Below, piece after piece: positions 1,916-42,970 of a stretch of 64,000 nucleotides of DNA; the stretch's first letter is position 1, and every line of letters starts with the position of its first letter. The translations under genes were made by a program, and so were the position numbers. This stretch comes from Acidimicrobiia bacterium (lineage in GTDB: Bacteria; Actinomycetota; Acidimicrobiia; Acidimicrobiales; Aldehydirespiratoraceae): NCBI GenBank assembly GCA_022819505.1, contig JAJEHD010000018.1, forward strand, positions 560,587 to 624,586. The letters are read 5' to 3'. The notes beneath the pieces were generated by a model. It was given only the letters and a program-made list of their open reading frames with translations. It ran no database searches and had not been told where the DNA came from.

Positions 1916-3016
1916 GTGCGCAGGCTGGTTCTCGAGCAGCGAGCCACCCCGTCTCGCACGTTCTCGCTGGCACTGCCGGCTCTGTCCGCGTTGGGCGCGC
2001 TCATTCTCGGGAGCGTCCCTCTGATGCTGATCGGCGCCGACCCGATCGAGGTGTACCGCCTGATGCTCACCAGTGCCTTCGGTAGCACTCGTGGCATCAC
2101 CGACACCCTCACCGACGCGATGCCGATCATGCTGACCGGCCTGGCGGCGGTCGTGACGTTCCGCATGAACGTGTGGAACATCGGAGCCGAGGGTCAGCTC
2201 CAGATCGGGGCGGTGACCTCGGCCGGCGTCGCGCTCTGGCTCGGCGACGGCGCCAACACCGTGTTCGCGCTGGTTGCCATGATCGTCGCCGGAGTCCTGG
2301 GCGGGAGCCTCTACGCGGGCTTGGTGGCGCTGCCGGCGGCGACCTGGAGGGTCGACGAGGTGGTCCTGACCCTCATGATGAACTTCCTGTCGCTGGCGTT
2401 CATCAACTACCTGGTGTTCGGCAGCCACAGCCCGTGGCGGGACGCGTTCTCGATCAGCTTCCCTCGGGGCCAGCTCATTCCCGACAGCTCGCGCCTGCCC
2501 GATCTGTCGGGCCGGCTTAACCTGGGCTTCGTCATCACGCTGGCGGTGGTATTCCTCGTCGCCTGGCTGCTGAAGTACACGGTCTGGGGATACGAGTACT
2601 TGGTAGTGGCCGACTCGCGGGGGGCGGCCTCCTTCGCCGGCATCAACCAGTGGCGGATGATCGTCAGCTCGTTCCTGCTGTCGGGCGGCTGCGCCGGTCT
2701 GGGGGGCGCAGTGCTGGTCGGCGGGACGCTGGGGGCGATGGAGCCCCGGGCCCTGACCGGCCTCGGTTTCACCGGGATCCTGGTGGCGGCCCTGGGACGC
2801 ATGTCGCCTACCGGCGTGATCCCGGCCGCGATCGTGCTGTCGGCCATCGTGTCGTCGGGTCCTGACCTGCAGCAGATCGGAGTGCCCGCTCCGCTGACGG
2901 TGGTATTGCAGGGGCTCATCCTGGTGGTGATCGCCGGGGGCGAGTTCCATCTCCGGTACCGCTTGACGAGAGCCGGATCCACAGCCCAGGAGGCGCATGG
3001 GGAGAGCGCTCCGTGA
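1916..3016 (+). CDS. ABC transporter permease (BMP-type system)
   Basis: Hydrophobic multi-span protein with a GTG start 3 nt after the ATPase stop and high GC3. Antisense ORF 1910-2998 was rejected. Confidence 0.85.
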   Translation: MRRLVLEQRATPSRTFSLALPALSALGALILGSVPLMLIGADPIEVYRLMLTSAFGSTRGITDTLTDAMPIMLTGLAAVVTFRMNVWNIGAEGQLQIGAVTSAGVALWLGDGANTVFALVAMIVAGVLGGSLYAGLVALPAATWRVDEVVLTLMMNFLSLAFINYLVFGSHSPWRDAFSISFPRGQLIPDSSRLPDLSGRLNLGFVITLAVVFLVAWLLKYTVWGYEYLVVADSRGAASFAGINQWRMIVSSFLLSGGCAGLGGAVLVGGTLGAMEPRALTGLGFTGILVAALGRMSPTGVIPAAIVLSAIVSSGPDLQQIGVPAPLTVVLQGLILVVIAGGEFHLRYRLTRAGSTAQEAHGESAP

Positions 3017-3960: not shown

Positions 3961-5376
3961 TCAATCGCCGGAGCCCCAGGACACCGAGAACCGGTCAAGG
4001 CCGACCCGGTCGTTCAGGTTGGCGACGGCCCGCTCGGCCTCCTCGATGACCTCTCGTTCATCGACGGTGACGCAGCGTGCGTCCTCGACGACTACCCGGC
4101 CGTCCACCACTACCGTCCGGACATTGGCGCCGGTGACCGAGTTGACGACGGTCGTCGCCGTCTTCTGGCTGGGAATGCAGCTCGGTCCGGTCACGTCGAC
4201 GACGGCCAGGTCGGCCAGACGGCCCTGTGCCAGCACACCCACGTCGAAGCCGGTGAACTCGGCTCCCCCCAGCATCGCTGCCTCCAGGACTGTCTCGCTG
4301 GTGATCACCGATGGATCCACGGCCAGTGCTCGGTGCACCAGAACCGTCTGCTTCATGACCTCGAAGGCGTCCTGACGGTGGCCGACAGCAGGACCATCGG
4401 TCCCTAGCCCGACCACCACGCCGGCGTCGAGCATCTCTAGCAGCGGCATGGTTCCGACCCCGAGAGACGCGTTGGACACCGCGTTGTGGGCCACGGCCGC
4501 GCCGGTATCGGCCAGCGCCGCCACCTCGTCGGGGGTCACCCATATCGCATGGGCGAGCGTCGTCTCCGGCCCCAGCAGGCCCTCCCGGTGCAGCCATGAG
4601 ATCGGCGTCGTCTCATAGGCCCTCTGGTACACGACGGGGTCGCCCTTGGACTCACAGCAGTGCGTGTGCCACTTGGTGCCGAATCGTCGAGCCAGCTCCA
4701 CGGAGCCGGCGATCATGTCCTGGTCGTTGAAGGCGATGTTCAAGGGCCCGGGCCAGAGCGCCACCAGCGGGTCGTCGGACCAGCCTGACAGCAGCTCGGC
4801 CATGATCGAGAGCTCCTCACCGGTGGTGTAGTAGTTGGGCCGGGACCCGCTGTCTCGGAACGCCATCGCCGGCGGGCTCGTGCCGGTCATCCCCCGGGCG
4901 ACCGCGCCACGGATCCCCACTGACTCCATCGCGCCGGCCACCGCCACCGTGGTCTCGGGATCGGGCGGCATGTACTGGTTGTCGACCACGCATGTGATTC
5001 CGGCCCGGACCGCCTCCAGCGCGGCCAGGCGCGTACCGGCCACGACCTCGTCGCGAGTGACCTCGTCGGCGACCGGGAACGTGAGCGTGGAGAGCCAATC
5101 CCAAGTGGTGAGACCCTCTCCAAGGCTCTTGATCAGCATCTGTGCAAGGTGGCTGTGACAATCGACGAATCCCGGTAGCACTACCGCGCCCGTGCAGTCG
5201 ATGACTCGGCGCGCCGCGGAGGCGTCCACGCGGTCCGTGCTGTCGACCGCCACGATGCGGTTGCCCGACACCGCGACCGCCCCCCGTTCGATCACCCGCC
5301 GGTCGTCGTCGAGGGTGACCACCGTCCCGCCGGACAGCACAAGGTCGTACTCGGGCGTGACTTGAGTCGCAGGCAT
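3961..5376 (-). CDS. Amidohydrolase-superfamily deaminase/chlorohydrolase-type enzyme (nucleobase / MTA / triazine deaminase family)
   Basis: PGFVDCHSHL (HxH metal site), WHTHCCES, GLGTDG. Start trimmed from track ORF 3961-5829 to the ATG at 5376 (MPATQVTPEYDLVLSGGTVV), because the upstream part overlaps the Rieske gene. Confidence 0.8.
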   Translation of the reverse strand: MPATQVTPEYDLVLSGGTVVTLDDDRRVIERGAVAVSGNRIVAVDSTDRVDASAARRVIDCTGAVVLPGFVDCHSHLAQMLIKSLGEGLTTWDWLSTLTFPVADEVTRDEVVAGTRLAALEAVRAGITCVVDNQYMPPDPETTVAVAGAMESVGIRGAVARGMTGTSPPAMAFRDSGSRPNYYTTGEELSIMAELLSGWSDDPLVALWPGPLNIAFNDQDMIAGSVELARRFGTKWHTHCCESKGDPVVYQRAYETTPISWLHREGLLGPETTLAHAIWVTPDEVAALADTGAAVAHNAVSNASLGVGTMPLLEMLDAGVVVGLGTDGPAVGHRQDAFEVMKQTVLVHRALAVDPSVITSETVLEAAMLGGAEFTGFDVGVLAQGRLADLAVVDVTGPSCIPSQKTATTVVNSVTGANVRTVVVDGRVVVEDARCVTVDEREVIEEAERAVANLNDRVGLDRFSVSWGSGD

Positions 5377-5417
5377 CGCTTGCTCCCGTCTCGTTCCCGG
5401 CGTCCCGCAGCCGTCTG

Positions 5418-6557
5418 CTAGCCGGGTTCTGGAATCGTCTCGTCGCGGCCCTGCTCCAGCTGGCTGACGATCTCTCGCAGCCACAGCCGGTACTCCAGGG
5501 AGTAGAGGTCCACGCCCCGGATGTGCAGTTCGGCCGCCAAGTCCTGGGGCACTGCGTTCGGTCGCTGCGACTCGACGACGGGCCGGTCCTGTTCGTAGAC
5601 CGTCATGTTCAGCACGGCATGGTCCTTGAACGCCGTTCCCGGCTCGCCGAAGTTCCTTGCCACCACGGTGAAGTTCCTGGTGCGATCCGGTCCGAGGGGA
5701 GTAGCGCAGAAGAACTGGCTGAAGGAGCTGTTGCCCGCACTGATGTCCAGCCGGACGGCCAACGGCATCGAGATGGTCCTCATGTTGGTCACCTCGACGA
5801 ATTCGGCGTCGGTGTCGACCTCGGACCACTTGGACAGCCGAGCCGGTTGGAGCACCGGCTCATCCTCCATCATGCACAAGGTCATTCCGTCGCGCCAGAC
5901 CTTGTACGAGTTGATCTCGGGATGGTTGATGTCGCCGAGCCACCCGTCGTGGACGAAGGCGAAGTGGCTGACGTCGGTGTAGTTCTCGATGCGTCGCGCA
6001 GCTGCGCAATTCCAGTCGACCACTGGGAACTCGACCCAGTAGTAGTCCGGGTCGCTGAACTGGGGGAAGTCGGGCATCGGGGCGAGGGACTCGTCCTCGA
6101 GGCAGACCCAGATGAGCCCGTACCTCTCCTCGGCCCTGTAGCTGCGTACAGAGATGTCGAGCTTGTCGGCGAGGTCGGGCGCCTGCGGGACCAGCCTGCA
6201 CCGACCGGTGCCGTCGTACTGCCAGCCGTGGTAGGCGCAGCGAAGCCTCGTCCCCCCGGCGGTGACCGCACCCAGCGACAACGCGGTGCCCCGATGGGCA
6301 CACAGGTCGTTGAACGCCCGCACCCGGCCGTCGAGCCTCACGATCACCAGCTGCTGGTCGCACAACTCGGCCTGAACGGGGTCGGCGTCCACGTCGGAGG
6401 ATCGGGCCACGGGGTGCCAGAAGTGCCGGAAGGTCTCGTAGATCCTGCGGTCGGTGTCCGCATCTATCACCGTCGACTCGAACTGGTTCCTGGCGAGAGT
6501 GGGCCCGCCGTCGGCCGAGATTGCTGCCTCCGATCTCGGTTGGGCTCCGCTGTTCAT
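5418..6557 (-). CDS. Rieske [2Fe-2S] non-heme iron oxygenase, alpha subunit type (paralog 1)
   Basis: Rieske motif CAHRGTALSLG...CAYHGWQYD. Mononuclear iron motif ENYTDVSHFAFVH. 4-bp overlap with the upstream ferredoxin gene. Confidence 0.9.
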   Translation of the reverse strand: MNSGAQPRSEAAISADGGPTLARNQFESTVIDADTDRRIYETFRHFWHPVARSSDVDADPVQAELCDQQLVIVRLDGRVRAFNDLCAHRGTALSLGAVTAGGTRLRCAYHGWQYDGTGRCRLVPQAPDLADKLDISVRSYRAEERYGLIWVCLEDESLAPMPDFPQFSDPDYYWVEFPVVDWNCAAARRIENYTDVSHFAFVHDGWLGDINHPEINSYKVWRDGMTLCMMEDEPVLQPARLSKWSEVDTDAEFVEVTNMRTISMPLAVRLDISAGNSSFSQFFCATPLGPDRTRNFTVVARNFGEPGTAFKDHAVLNMTVYEQDRPVVESQRPNAVPQDLAAELHIRGVDLYSLEYRLWLREIVSQLEQGRDETIPEPG

Positions 6558-40386: not shown

Positions 40387-40902
40387 TCAATGCTGAAAGC
40401 TGCGGCGAGAGGAGATCACCCCGGTGTCGAAGCCGGACAGGTGCAGGCCGCCGTGGAAGCGGGCGTGCTCGATCTTGAGGCAGCGGTCCATCACCACGTC
40501 GAGGCCTGCGGCGGTGCATCGCCGGGCGGCCTCCGGGCTCCACAACCCGAGCTGCGCCCAGAAGACCGGAGCACCCACTGCGATGGCCTCGTCGGCCACG
40601 GCGGGCAGATCCTCGGAGCGGCGGAACGCGTCGACGATGTCGGGTGTGACCGGCAGGTCTGCCAGCGACGCGTACACCTTTCGGCCGAGGATCTCTGTGC
40701 CGGCCAACCGGGGGTTCACCGGGTACACCTCGAAGTCGGTGGACGACGACAGCAGGTAGGTGAGGACGAAGTAGCTGGCTCGGGCCAGGTTGGCGGAGGC
40801 GCCGACGACCGCCACCGTCTCGGAGCGGTTCAGGATCCGCTGACGCTCGAGCGCGGTCGGCGGCGTCCAGCCCTCGACGGGCGGGTGATCAGCCTCAGGC
40901 AC
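40387..40902 (-). CDS. CoA-binding domain protein (YccU/YneT-like)
   Basis: ..TVAVVGASANLARASYFV..YPVNP..ILGRKVYASLADLP..PDIVDAFR.. is the CoA-binding Rossmann pattern. 8-bp overlap with metY. Confidence 0.8.
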   Translation of the reverse strand: MPEADHPPVEGWTPPTALERQRILNRSETVAVVGASANLARASYFVLTYLLSSSTDFEVYPVNPRLAGTEILGRKVYASLADLPVTPDIVDAFRRSEDLPAVADEAIAVGAPVFWAQLGLWSPEAARRCTAAGLDVVMDRCLKIEHARFHGGLHLSGFDTGVISSRRSFQH

Positions 40903-42193
40903 CGGAGTCCTTCGTGGCCGCTGTCAGGGCCTGGTCGAGGTCCCAGATGATGTCGTCGACGTCCTCCAGGCCGACCGATATGCGCACCATGTCCGGCGAC
41001 ACGCCCCCCGCCTCCAACTCGGCGTCGGAGAGCTGCTGGTGGGTGGTGGAGGCCGGGTGTATGACCAGCGTCTTGGCGTCGCCCACATTGGCGAGATGCG
41101 ACACCATCTGCAGCGACTCGATGAAGCGGGCACCGGCGGCACGCCCGCCCACCACGCCGAAGGTGAAGATGGCGCCCGGTCCCTTGGGCAGGTAGCGGTT
41201 GGCCAGGTCGTGCTGGGGATGGTCGGGCAGGCCCGCCCACAGCACCCACGCCACCCGTTCGTCGGCGTCGAGCCACTCGGCCACGGCCCGGGCGTTGGCG
41301 ACATGGGCGTCCATGCGCAGCGGCAGCGTCTCGATCCCCTGCAGCAGCAGGAAGGCGTTGAACGGGGACAGGCAGGCGCCGACGTCACGCAGCTGCTCGG
41401 CCCGGACCTTCGTGCAGAAGGCGTACTCGCCGAAGTTGTCCCACCAGCGCAGCTCGTTGTAGCTCGGGATCCGATCGACCATGTGCGGGAACCGGCCCGA
41501 GTCCCAGTCGAAGCGGCCCGCCTCCACGATCACTCCCGCGATGGAGGTTCCGTGGCCGCCCAGGAACTTGGTGGCCGAATGCAGGGCGATGTCGGCGCCG
41601 TGGTCCAGCGGGCGGCACAGGTACGGGGTGGCGAACGTCGAGTCGACCGCCAGCGGCAGGCGGTGGGCCTGGGCCACGTCGGCTAGGGCGGCCAGGTCGG
41701 CCACCGCGCCGGAGGGGTTGGCGATGATCTCGGTGTAGAGCAGCTTCGTGTTGGGCCGTACCGCCGCGGCGAAAGCGTCGGGATCGGTTCCGTCGACGAA
41801 CGTCGTGTCGATGCCGAGGCGTCGCAGCGTCACGTCCAGGAGCGTGTAGGTGCCGCCGTAGAGGCCGGCCGCGGCCACTACGTGTTGGCCGGCGGAGGCC
41901 AGCGCCGTGACGGTGAGGAACTCGGCGGCCTGACCGCTGGAGGTGGCCACCGCTCCGATGCCCCCCTCGAGGCTGGCCATGCGCTCCTCGAAGGCCGCGT
42001 TCGTCGGGTTGGAGATCCGCGTGTAGAACGGGCCGTACTTCTGGAGGGCGAACAGGTCGGCGGCATCGGCGGTGTCCTCGAACACGAAGCTCGTCGACTG
42101 GTAGATGGGCACCGCCCTAGCGCCGGTGGTGGGGTCGGGTTGGCCGCCTGCGTGCAGGGCCCGGGTACGGAACCCCCAATTCCGGTCTTCCAT
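40895..42193 (-). CDS. metY: O-acetylhomoserine sulfhydrylase (aminocarboxypropyltransferase), PLP-dependent
   Basis: [21 protein letters not shown]-like N-terminus and PLP lysine motif [11 protein letters not shown]. Trimmed from track ORF 40895-42325 to the ATG at 42193. Confidence 0.9.
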
Positions 42194-42200
42194 GCCTTGA

Positions 42201-42430
42201 CGATACTCATCCCGGACTCGTCCCGGCCGGCGGGTCCTGTCGCCGAGCCGAGATGATCGACACGGGCTTCGCCCTATTCGTCGGTCATCTGACTCGTCGC
42301 CACCCCCCGGCCTGGCGATACTCATCCCGGACTCGTCCCGGCCGGCGGGTCCTGTCGCCGAGCCGAGATGACCGACACGGGCTTCGCCCTATTCGTCGGT
42401 CATCTGACTCGTCGCCACCCCCCGGCCTGG
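42201..42430. repeat. Direct tandem duplication, 2 x 115 bp, one mismatch (42257 T vs 42372 C)
   Basis: Read directly: unit 1 is 42201-42315 and unit 2 is 42316-42430. Each unit holds an extended hairpin, AGATGA(T/C)CGAC..GGGCttcGCCC..GTCGGTCATCT (42251-42290 and 42366-42405). Confidence 0.95.
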
Positions 42431-42544
42431 CGCACCGCGCACTCTCGTGGGGGATGCGCCGGGGTACGGTTCGGAGTTGTGGGCTCGTTCAGTCGCGAGA
42501 CGGTGGCTTTCGAGTCGTCTGACACCTCAGTGGTGGTGCGGGCC

Positions 42545-42970
42545 ATGCAGACCCTGGCGGCCCGGGGCGACGGGCTGGGCTGGATCAACATCGGTCCCGG
42601 CCTGCGAGACGATCAGATCGACAGGCTCCCTGCGCCGACGGCACTGGACCGGTGGTTCTCCGGTCGGGGGCCGGCGGTGCCCATGGCGACGTGGACCCCG
42701 CCCCGGGGGGTTTCCGGCGATTCGCAGCCGACGGTGGGCGTGGCCCATGGGGCGGGCCCCAAGGCGCTGAACCGGCTCCGCGACGCCGGGCTGCCGCTGC
42801 CGCCGGGCTGGCGCAAGGTTCAGGACCACGCCAAGCACGGCATCGTCGTCCATCCGATGCCGGGTGCGGCCCATGACGAGGTGCTCGAGTGGCTGCTGGC
42901 GGCCTGCTGGTCGCTGTGCCCCATCGAGATCGAGGACCACTGGCTGGCGGAGGTCCACCGCCCTACGTAG
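42545..42970 (+). CDS. Hypothetical protein (start uncertain; ORF is open from 42368, inside the tandem repeat)
   Basis: High GC3 from about 42545 (MQTLAARGDGLGWINIGPGLRDDQIDRLP...). No family recognised. Confidence 0.5.
   Translation: MQTLAARGDGLGWINIGPGLRDDQIDRLPAPTALDRWFSGRGPAVPMATWTPPRGVSGDSQPTVGVAHGAGPKALNRLRDAGLPLPPGWRKVQDHAKHGIVVHPMPGAAHDEVLEWLLAACWSLCPIEIEDHWLAEVHRPT

Follow-up and report, generated by a model that had tools for sequence, protein, structure and literature searches.

Introduction

Mycobacterial interspersed repetitive units (MIRU) are dispersed, intergenic sequences of 40-100 bp that lie mostly within operons, in one orientation and beside a downstream translation start, and that occur singly or in tandem arrays whose copy number varies between close relatives. 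They are the basis of MIRU-variable number tandem repeat (VNTR) typing in Mycobacterium tuberculosis. Repetitive extragenic palindromic sequences (REP), bacterial interspersed mosaic elements (BIME), REPINs, and repeats of the enterobacterial repetitive intergenic consensus (ERIC) or miniature inverted-repeat transposable element (MITE) type are short, extragenic, hairpin-forming and multi-copy; they are often found just past stop codons, keep their stems by compensatory change, and are present or absent at orthologous sites. Rickettsia palindromic elements (RPE), in turn, are palindromes of about 100 nt that can lie in frame within genes and add a peptide to the gene product. Structured elements of another kind, the S-adenosylmethionine (SAM) and S-adenosylhomocysteine (SAH) riboswitches, among them SAM-IV and SAM-I, accompany methionine genes of actinobacteria. 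Here, we describe a tandem duplication of a palindromic repeat element next to metY, a gene of the O-acetylhomoserine sulfhydrylase family, in a stretch of 64,000 nucleotides from an Acidimicrobiia bacterium (assembly GCA_022819505.1, contig JAJEHD010000018.1, positions 560,587 to 624,586; hereafter, the window).

The element belongs to a family that resembles each of these repeat systems in part. Like MIRU, it is actinobacterial and dispersed, with copies in Solirubrobacterales that are mostly operon-internal, in one orientation and beside a downstream translation start; the likeness is one of function and organisation only. Unlike MIRU, which are not so defined, the family is characterized by a long palindromic hairpin with conserved arms, some of its copies are translated within open reading frames (ORFs), and its hosts are Acidimicrobiia and Thermoleophilia. 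Its conserved part, a 9-bp stem with an asymmetric loop in place of a simple terminal inverted repeat, sets it apart from REP and MITE-like repeats, as do flanks that showed no transposase and a target-site duplication that was not demonstrated; a GTAG-type 5' motif as in REP was not noticed by eye in the aligned arms, neither this motif nor genes for REP-associated tyrosine transposases (RAYT) having been searched for. With RPE it shares palindromes inserted in frame, yet lineage and sequence are unrelated, most copies are intergenic, and the insertions within ORFs all have one orientation. The resemblance to SAM and SAH riboswitches lies in a structured, GC-rich element beside an O-acetylhomoserine sulfhydrylase gene. 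In contrast to these, the element is not matched by their covariance models, lies outside the presumed transcript, is not confined to sulfur or methionine genes, and is dispensable in orthologues.

A tandem riboswitch controlling metY, as a preliminary description of this region had proposed, turned out to be a false lead. We present evidence for the duplication itself, for a dispersed repeat family with a covarying structure, and for variation in copy number at the same locus in related genomes. The feature in the window is probably a VNTR-like copy-number change of an interspersed palindromic element akin to MIRU, REP and RPE, generated at a CG microhomology. A by-product of the analysis is an apparently uncatalogued palindromic-repeat family common to two actinobacterial classes.

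Results

Tandem Repeats Finder (TRF) reported a single array in the window, at 42201-42432, with a period of 115, 2.0 copies, 99% matches, no indels and a score of 457. The two units, 42201-42315 and 42316-42430, have one sole mismatch, T at 42257 in copy 1 against C at 42372 in copy 2, in agreement with the near-perfect 2 x 115 bp duplication first described, and this single difference in 115 bp is in keeping with a recent event. Each unit comprises 21 nt of metY-proximal, putative promoter DNA (CGATACTCATCCCGGACTCGT) followed by one repeat element on the plus strand (42222-42315 in copy 1 and 42337-42430 in copy 2). Seven nucleotides (42194-42200) separate the repeat from the metY start codon (ATG 42193), so that the block begins 8 bp upstream of the gene, as had been noted. 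The CG with which the units begin (42201-42202 and 42316-42317) recurs at the distal boundary of the duplication (42431-42432), which the TRF array reaches; the junction thus has a microhomology of 2 nt in a TGNCG context (TGA/CG versus TGG/CG).

Within each element a left and a right arm enclose a long inner hairpin. The left arm (CCGGCGGGTCCTGTC; 42227-42241 in copy 1, 42342-42356 in copy 2) contains the 5' strand of stem P1 (CCGGCGGGT) and a CCTGTC loop, and the right arm (GCCACCCCCCGG; 42299-42310 and 42414-42425) contains a GCC loop and the 3' strand of P1, with a C.C mismatch typical of copies from sponge-associated bacteria; these arms define the family. The inner hairpin (42251-42290 and 42366-42405, plus strand) is a sequence of 40 nt, AGATGA(T/C)CGAC-AC-GGGC-TTC-GCCC-TATTC-GTCGGTCATCT, in which an 11-bp stem surrounds GGGC-TTC-GCCC. 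The stem is perfect in copy 2 and has a T.G pair at 42257 in copy 1, which reads A.C on the opposite strand; both the presence of the hairpin in each unit and the effect of the substitution had thus been correctly described. The 40-nt sequence occurs at these two places only in the window, and none is expected from shuffled sequences. The whole element is predicted to fold with -55 to -60 kcal/mol (z about -4). A covariance model of the family, R1, matched 42215-42322 with 80.3 bits and 42330-42437 with 78.1 bits, and found only these two copies in the 64-kb window, the next best matches (18 bits) being their own reverse strands.

Copies of the element elsewhere have the same architecture: the left arm CCGGCGGGTCCTGTC is followed by a variable hairpin, which spans 18-68 nt where the copy is full, and then by the right arm GCCACCC(C/G)CCGG. 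The outer stem of 9 bp (CCGGCGGGT paired with ACCC(C/G)CCGG) is followed by an asymmetric internal loop, CCTGTC opposite GCC, and the conserved stem-loop of the family can be written CCGGCGGGUCCUGUC...GCCACCCGCCGG. The element is about 95 nt long, with units ranging from 70 to 120 nt, and forms one long imperfect hairpin, which makes it a short non-coding hairpin unit with conserved termini. Whole elements are predicted to fold as a single long hairpin on either strand (z from -2.8 to -6.2). In the inner helix beside the loop, eight of eight tested pairs have changed on both sides, for example GCGAGGGA/TCCCTCGC and GAGGACTC/GAGTCCTC; 86.1% of the inner-helix cells are paired, compared with 72.7% in shuffles (0 of 500 reached the observed value) and 42-57% with slid partners, and a separate count of inner-helix pairing agrees with the covariation. 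Orthologous soil copies upstream of recQ and of guaA differ from each other through compensatory changes, the inner-helix pairs at the recQ site being CGTGGGGA/ATCCCACG, AGGGAGAT/ATCTCCCT and GGGGAGAT/ATCTCCCC. Counts of G.U (43) versus A.C (60) in the inner helix do not single out a strand.

An exact left-arm scan of metagenome contigs yielded at least 120 loci, and a relaxed two-arm search of these recovered 95 full elements among the matches listed. Together with the loci from related genomes and the window, they gave 115 distinct element sequences. About 90 full copies among the matches listed, on metagenome contigs, lie at many unrelated sites per lineage, and several contigs bear two to three copies kilobases apart (L144, L091 with L095, and L172; individual loci are denoted by L numbers). 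The hosts are sponge-associated Acidimicrobiia and soil Solirubrobacterales, the latter judged by the names on the best GuaA hits. Genes beside the copies are mutually unrelated and include guaA, recQ, proS, valS, maf, trpG, nuoE, grpE, cimA and pfkB/iunH. Among viral contigs, 70 exact matches to the left-arm 15-mer were found, none with a right arm and none a full element, which serves as a control for chance matches; since no right arm lies beside any of them, a phage-borne element was rejected.

The copies fall into subfamilies that follow the host lineages. Soil copies have a perfect stem and usually carry AGGAG, AGGGG or AGGAA immediately behind them, just ahead of the next gene (guaA, recQ, proS, valS, maf, trpG or nuoE, and grpE after dnaK); 26 of 47 evaluable copies are preceded, at a distance of 8-68 nt, by a same-strand stop codon. 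Between the 5' flank of these copies (CTCC or TTCC) and the Shine-Dalgarno-like tract, pairing occurs in 77.5% of cases versus 70.4% in shuffles, above all 1000 of them, a difference that is inflated by relatedness among the copies. Sponge copies, which represent the window's clade, mostly carry the C.C stem mismatch, lack a Shine-Dalgarno flank, have CCTGGCGGGTCG at their end, in which part of the left arm recurs as a direct repeat, and are found near the 3' ends of genes in either orientation.

As in RPE, copies also lie in frame within protein-coding genes. Of 71 evaluable copies from both lineages, ten are in-frame within ORFs, all on soil-type contigs and all antisense, with a GC content at third codon positions above 0.8 on both sides, and they code for PGGG...TGPAG stretches of membrane proteins and of a helicase. 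The family adds peptide segments to proteins. A 779-aa membrane protein encoded at L088 (279-2618, plus strand) carries two in-frame inserts, at 525-640 and 1128-1243, and further in-frame elements were observed at L089, L133, L137, L166, L170, L189, L190 and L203, where they give rise to Gly/Pro-rich segments such as PGGGAVGGPTPEDALATGRGGGSPAVTGPAGP.

Orthologous sites differ in the presence of the element at the cimA, pfkB-iunH and metY loci. Downstream of cimA a copy is present in L200 and L095 and absent from L274-L277; the CimA protein beside the L200 copy is 92% identical to a protein from the chromosome bearing L009, which links this copy to the window's clade. In L042 and L045 the same arms surround a different inner hairpin between pfkB and a nucleoside hydrolase gene (iunH), a position at which the window has no element. 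L045 additionally contains, between the element and pfkB (5078-5964), two small ORFs, one of 147 aa and one of 230 aa, which are absent from L042 and the window and may represent an inserted two-gene cassette of toxin-antitoxin type. When filled and empty cimA sites were compared, no insertion boundary could be defined, the sequences diverging immediately past the stop codon. The CCGG at both ends of the element (ccgg followed by CCGGCGGG...CCCGCCGG) belongs to the palindrome itself, and alignment yielded no clean empty site. A palindromic target site (CTCCGGAG, TTCCGGAA) may underlie the pairing between the flanks; the association of T/A versus C/G agrees better with the register of the pairing, but relatedness among copies inflates this association.

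The metY locus itself varies extensively. Judged by homologues of the protein encoded divergently from metY and by 80 genomic loci, the window belongs with the sponge-associated Acidimicrobiia ('Candidatus Aldehydirespirator', SB06xx bins), in which the intergenic distance at metY varies between 25 and 307 bp. A single copy of the element is present in many genomes (L003, L004, L010, L013, L032 and others), at least two full tandem copies in L005, with a junction that differs from that of the window, and at least three in L011, with a similar junction (CCTGGGGATACTC); copy number thus differs among close relatives at one locus (two in the window, one in L004, at least two in L005, at least three in L011), as at the loci used for MIRU-VNTR typing. 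The contigs of L005 and L011 both terminate within the array. Partial units are likewise arrayed: in L006 the left arm forms an array of 5 x 30 nt, in L002 there is one of 3 x 36 nt, L020 has 3 x 42 nt of a hairpin-less unit (arm starts 42 nt apart), L021 has two hairpin-less units and one full unit, and further partial-unit arrays occur in L015 with L019 and in L022. The arms are directly joined, with the inner hairpin deleted, in L026, L027 and L033, and the whole element is absent from L012, L016, L018, L025, L028, L029, L034 and L040-L045. These varied arrays, deletions and absences identify the metY locus as a recurrent hotspot of duplication and deletion, and they show that the element is dispensable for the retention of metY and of the divergent gene on its other side, which encodes a protein of 163 aa. 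VNTR-like loci of this kind could be of use in telling strains of uncultured sponge symbionts apart.

Two further observations concern this locus. L017, which lacks the element, has another tandem array in the same metY intergenic region (2845-3000; about three copies of GGCTACCGTGGCGCGGC-type units), so that tandem duplication at the metY locus is not bound to the repeat element alone. In addition, the C to T change in copy 1 of the window (42257, 5' arm of the inner stem) and a G to A change in two of the three L011 copies (3' arm; GTCGATCATCT) affect the same base pair of the 11-bp stem, and the two, if combined, would constitute a compensatory change from C-G to T-A.

The repeat lies between metY (40895-42193, minus strand; 432 aa, PF01053, Pfam E = 2e-128) and the conserved hypothetical gene for the 163-aa protein (42479-42970, plus strand). 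The latter starts at GTG 42479 rather than at ATG 42368: of 120 listed homologues, the majority are 163 aa long and align to the product from GTG 42479. Thus the repeat is entirely intergenic (the intergenic region being 42194-42478), and the earlier statement that it runs into the 5' end of an ORF at 42368-42970 reflects a mechanical over-extension of that ORF to 200 aa. An 89-aa ORF said to be created by the duplication (42253-42522) does exist as a mechanical reading frame; it and the 200-aa ORF are artefacts of open frames in GC-rich DNA. The family misleads gene callers in other hosts as well, to judge from the GuaA proteins of Solirubrobacterales, for which database calls are mostly 518-555 aa whereas the product starting just past the element has 507-510 aa; this suggests that the N-terminus of GuaA is extended through the open-frame repeat element.

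Actinobacterial genes with leaderless mRNAs have a TANNNT-type -10 box, which precedes the start codon by about 6-8 nt. A putative metY -10 box, TATCGT (42200-42205, minus strand), precedes the ATG by 6 nt and has five of its bases in copy 1 of the unit. The same hexamer is found at this distance in 30 of 34 orthologues, whatever sequence lies further upstream, and none of the 34 orthologous upstream regions has a Shine-Dalgarno sequence before metY. The duplicated counterpart in copy 2, TATCGC (42315-42320, minus strand), lacks the critical final T and is therefore probably not a second promoter. For the 163-aa gene, a candidate -10 box, TACGGT (42465-42470, plus strand), lies 8 nt before the GTG, and TAC(N)(N)T is kept at this position in orthologues with and without the repeat element; this gene, too, has no Shine-Dalgarno sequence. 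Both genes are probably leaderless, which would place the repeat upstream of both core promoters and in neither transcript. A scan of 42100-42560 with sigma-70 and intrinsic-terminator consensus sequences gave no match, these consensus sequences being uninformative for a high-GC actinobacterium. The native upstream sequence is kept for 115 bp at metY and for about 264 bp at the 163-aa gene.

The element was compared with known RNA families, those at issue being the Rfam models SAM-I, II, III, IV, V and VI, SAM-I/IV, SAM/SAH and SAH. A cmscan search of 41900-42800 at E <= 10 returned no riboswitch match, of the SAM, SAH or any other kind, nor did a search of the entire window at the gathering score. 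The repeat element was likewise unmatched at the gathering score in 12 loci bearing the family, and a canonical soil copy yielded miRNA-hairpin noise only at E <= 10. The family is absent from Rfam 15, in line with the earlier remark that the unit could not be matched to a SAM-I, SAM-IV, SAH or guanidine riboswitch consensus and may be unclassified. A limited full-text literature search found no description of it, and the repeat family appears to be undescribed.

Discussion

The mixed neighbours, in-frame insertions, presence and absence at orthologous sites, lineage-specific subfamilies and tandem arrays all argue for an interspersed palindromic repeat of the REP, ERIC, MITE, MIRU or RPE kind rather than a ligand-specific riboswitch. 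We envisage that one copy lodged, in an ancestor of the clade, between the divergent and probably leaderless promoters of metY and the 163-aa gene. Its short direct repeats (CCGGCC..., GGCGGGTC) and strong hairpins may then have led to recurrent rearrangement through replication slippage or unequal recombination. In the genome of the window, a 115-bp stretch consisting of the element and 21 nt of metY-proximal DNA would have been duplicated at the CG (TGNCG) microhomology. Both genes would retain their native -10 box, the duplicated fragment being degenerate (TATCGC), and the main effect of the duplication would be to move the promoters 115 bp further apart. The duplication itself is most likely neutral or nearly so.

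Several observations weigh against this account. Neither a transposase nor a target-site duplication nor a clean empty site was identified in the flanks examined, and the suggestion of selfish or mobile spread comes from the distribution of copies alone. The density of the element in the window's clade is low; dispersal holds for the family, and within the window's own genome there is one locus in 64 kb, while about 487 kb of related loci searched with model R1 contain the metY copies together with those of L042 and L045. Furthermore, the 84-nt element at the metY locus is 96-100% identical in most genomes and 86-91% identical in the most divergent (L009, L035, L022), whereas third-codon identity in the same genomes is 75-89% for metY and 60-91% for the 163-aa gene, and the intergenic DNA beside the element is more variable than the element. 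Conservation beyond that of synonymous sites points to homogenisation or to constraint on an operator, an RNA or a site bound by protein, and is unexpected for junk DNA. The near-invariance of the left arm across the family is in part a matter of ascertainment, the scan having demanded an exact 19-mer. Finally, orthologous sites in Solirubrobacterales retain the element through compensatory changes, and there it adjoins the Shine-Dalgarno sequence and forms some base pairs with it; the family could be a functional RNA module rather than selfish DNA.

The alternative that survives best takes up this last point. The family would be a functional structured RNA module, which might act within operons as a hairpin for processing, stabilisation or termination, or might mask the downstream Shine-Dalgarno sequence as a translational operator, with a protein that would recognise the invariant stem and the CCUGUC/GCC loop; the copies in the window would be a displaced and probably non-functional relic that happened to duplicate. 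The near-invariant arms across two actinobacterial classes, the covarying inner helix, the compensatory changes between orthologous recQ and guaA copies, the position of most evaluable soil copies shortly past a same-strand stop and typically just before an AGGAG, AGGGG or AGGAA tract and the next gene, and the excess of flank pairing over shuffles are consistent with this. Against it, no coherent regulon emerges from the genes beside the copies, the ten copies that lie within ORFs are translated in frame and all antisense, sponge copies have no Shine-Dalgarno flank, carry the C.C mismatch and lie in either orientation, the G.U and A.C counts favour neither strand, and the copies in the window lie outside the presumed transcripts. 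On balance we regard this explanation as unlikely, though a genuine post-transcriptional function is conceivable for arms that are so extremely conserved and lie right before a Shine-Dalgarno sequence. A more specific version, which we consider improbable, holds that the family is an undescribed RNA module widespread in Actinomycetota (Thermoleophilia and Acidimicrobiia), whose stem and CCUGUC/GCC loop dock a protein or RNase and thereby control how the downstream cistron is processed, how stable it is or how its translation starts, the metY copies being a co-opted derivative. The basal helix would, in this proposal, hold the Shine-Dalgarno sequence of the downstream cistron in housekeeping operons.

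It is comparably doubtful that the element has been co-opted at metY as a DNA site serving metY, the 163-aa gene or both, for instance as an operator, as a promoter spacer or by binding a nucleoid-associated protein, with the duplication doubling the input. The element does lie between two putative -10 boxes, contains a long inverted repeat, and is conserved far above synonymous sites and the neighbouring intergenic DNA. The hairpin has nevertheless been lost in L020, L026, L027 and L033, and the whole element is lacking in L012, L016, L018, L025, L028, L029 and L034, with both genes and their -10 boxes kept in every case; the same arms occur beside unrelated genes elsewhere, no methionine-regulon motif was identified, and the 163-aa protein belongs to no recognisable DNA-binding family or fold. 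Of the cis-regulatory readings originally suggested, the leader RNA is discarded, and the weaker one, a promoter or operator element, retains a low probability, with nothing tying the element to the regulation of metY.

That the second copy is an assembly artefact is very unlikely. The family does break short-read assemblies, the contigs of two relatives (L005 and L011) stopping inside the array, which indicates that assemblers struggle there. In the window, however, the two copies differ at one base and the window spans the entire array and reaches unique sequence on either side; relatives assembled independently have tandem arrays too, of at least two copies in one and at least three in the other, with different junctions.

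Least tenable, to the point of being very nearly dismissed, is the duplicated SAM-, SAH- or methionine-sensing leader that had been proposed to control metY: a methionine-pathway gene does adjoin the repeat and the predicted structure is strong, but Rfam gave no riboswitch match even at E <= 10, metY seems leaderless, which would leave no 5' untranslated region to house the element, many orthologous metY upstream regions lack the element and several lack its hairpin, and elsewhere the element stands beside many genes outside sulfur metabolism, with no constant link to methionine, cysteine or SAM genes, or is inserted in ORFs.

A VNTR-like copy-number change of an interspersed palindromic repeat, probably neutral in its effect, is therefore the reading of the window that we favor. 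Some minor observations may be added. The 163-aa protein matched no Pfam or NCBIfam family, and a Foldseek comparison of its confident AlphaFold model (pLDDT 86.6, pTM 0.84) with the PDB gave nothing at E < 0.1 (best E = 0.13, TM < 0.3); as to a role as regulator, these family and fold searches (Pfam, NCBIfam, PDB) neither support nor clearly refute it. The protein is conserved across Acidimicrobiia, with 129 homologues and invariant Trp, His and Asp motifs (WFSGRGP, QDHAKHGI). In Solirubrobacterales, cyclic di-AMP (ydaO/yuaA) riboswitches lie a few kilobases from guaA-associated copies of the element, at L096 4784-4944 (plus strand) and L117 6684-6844 (minus strand), with scores of 87 and 73 bits, respectively. 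Tandem pairs of the element away from metY are found among the sponge copies, at L118, L172 and L084.

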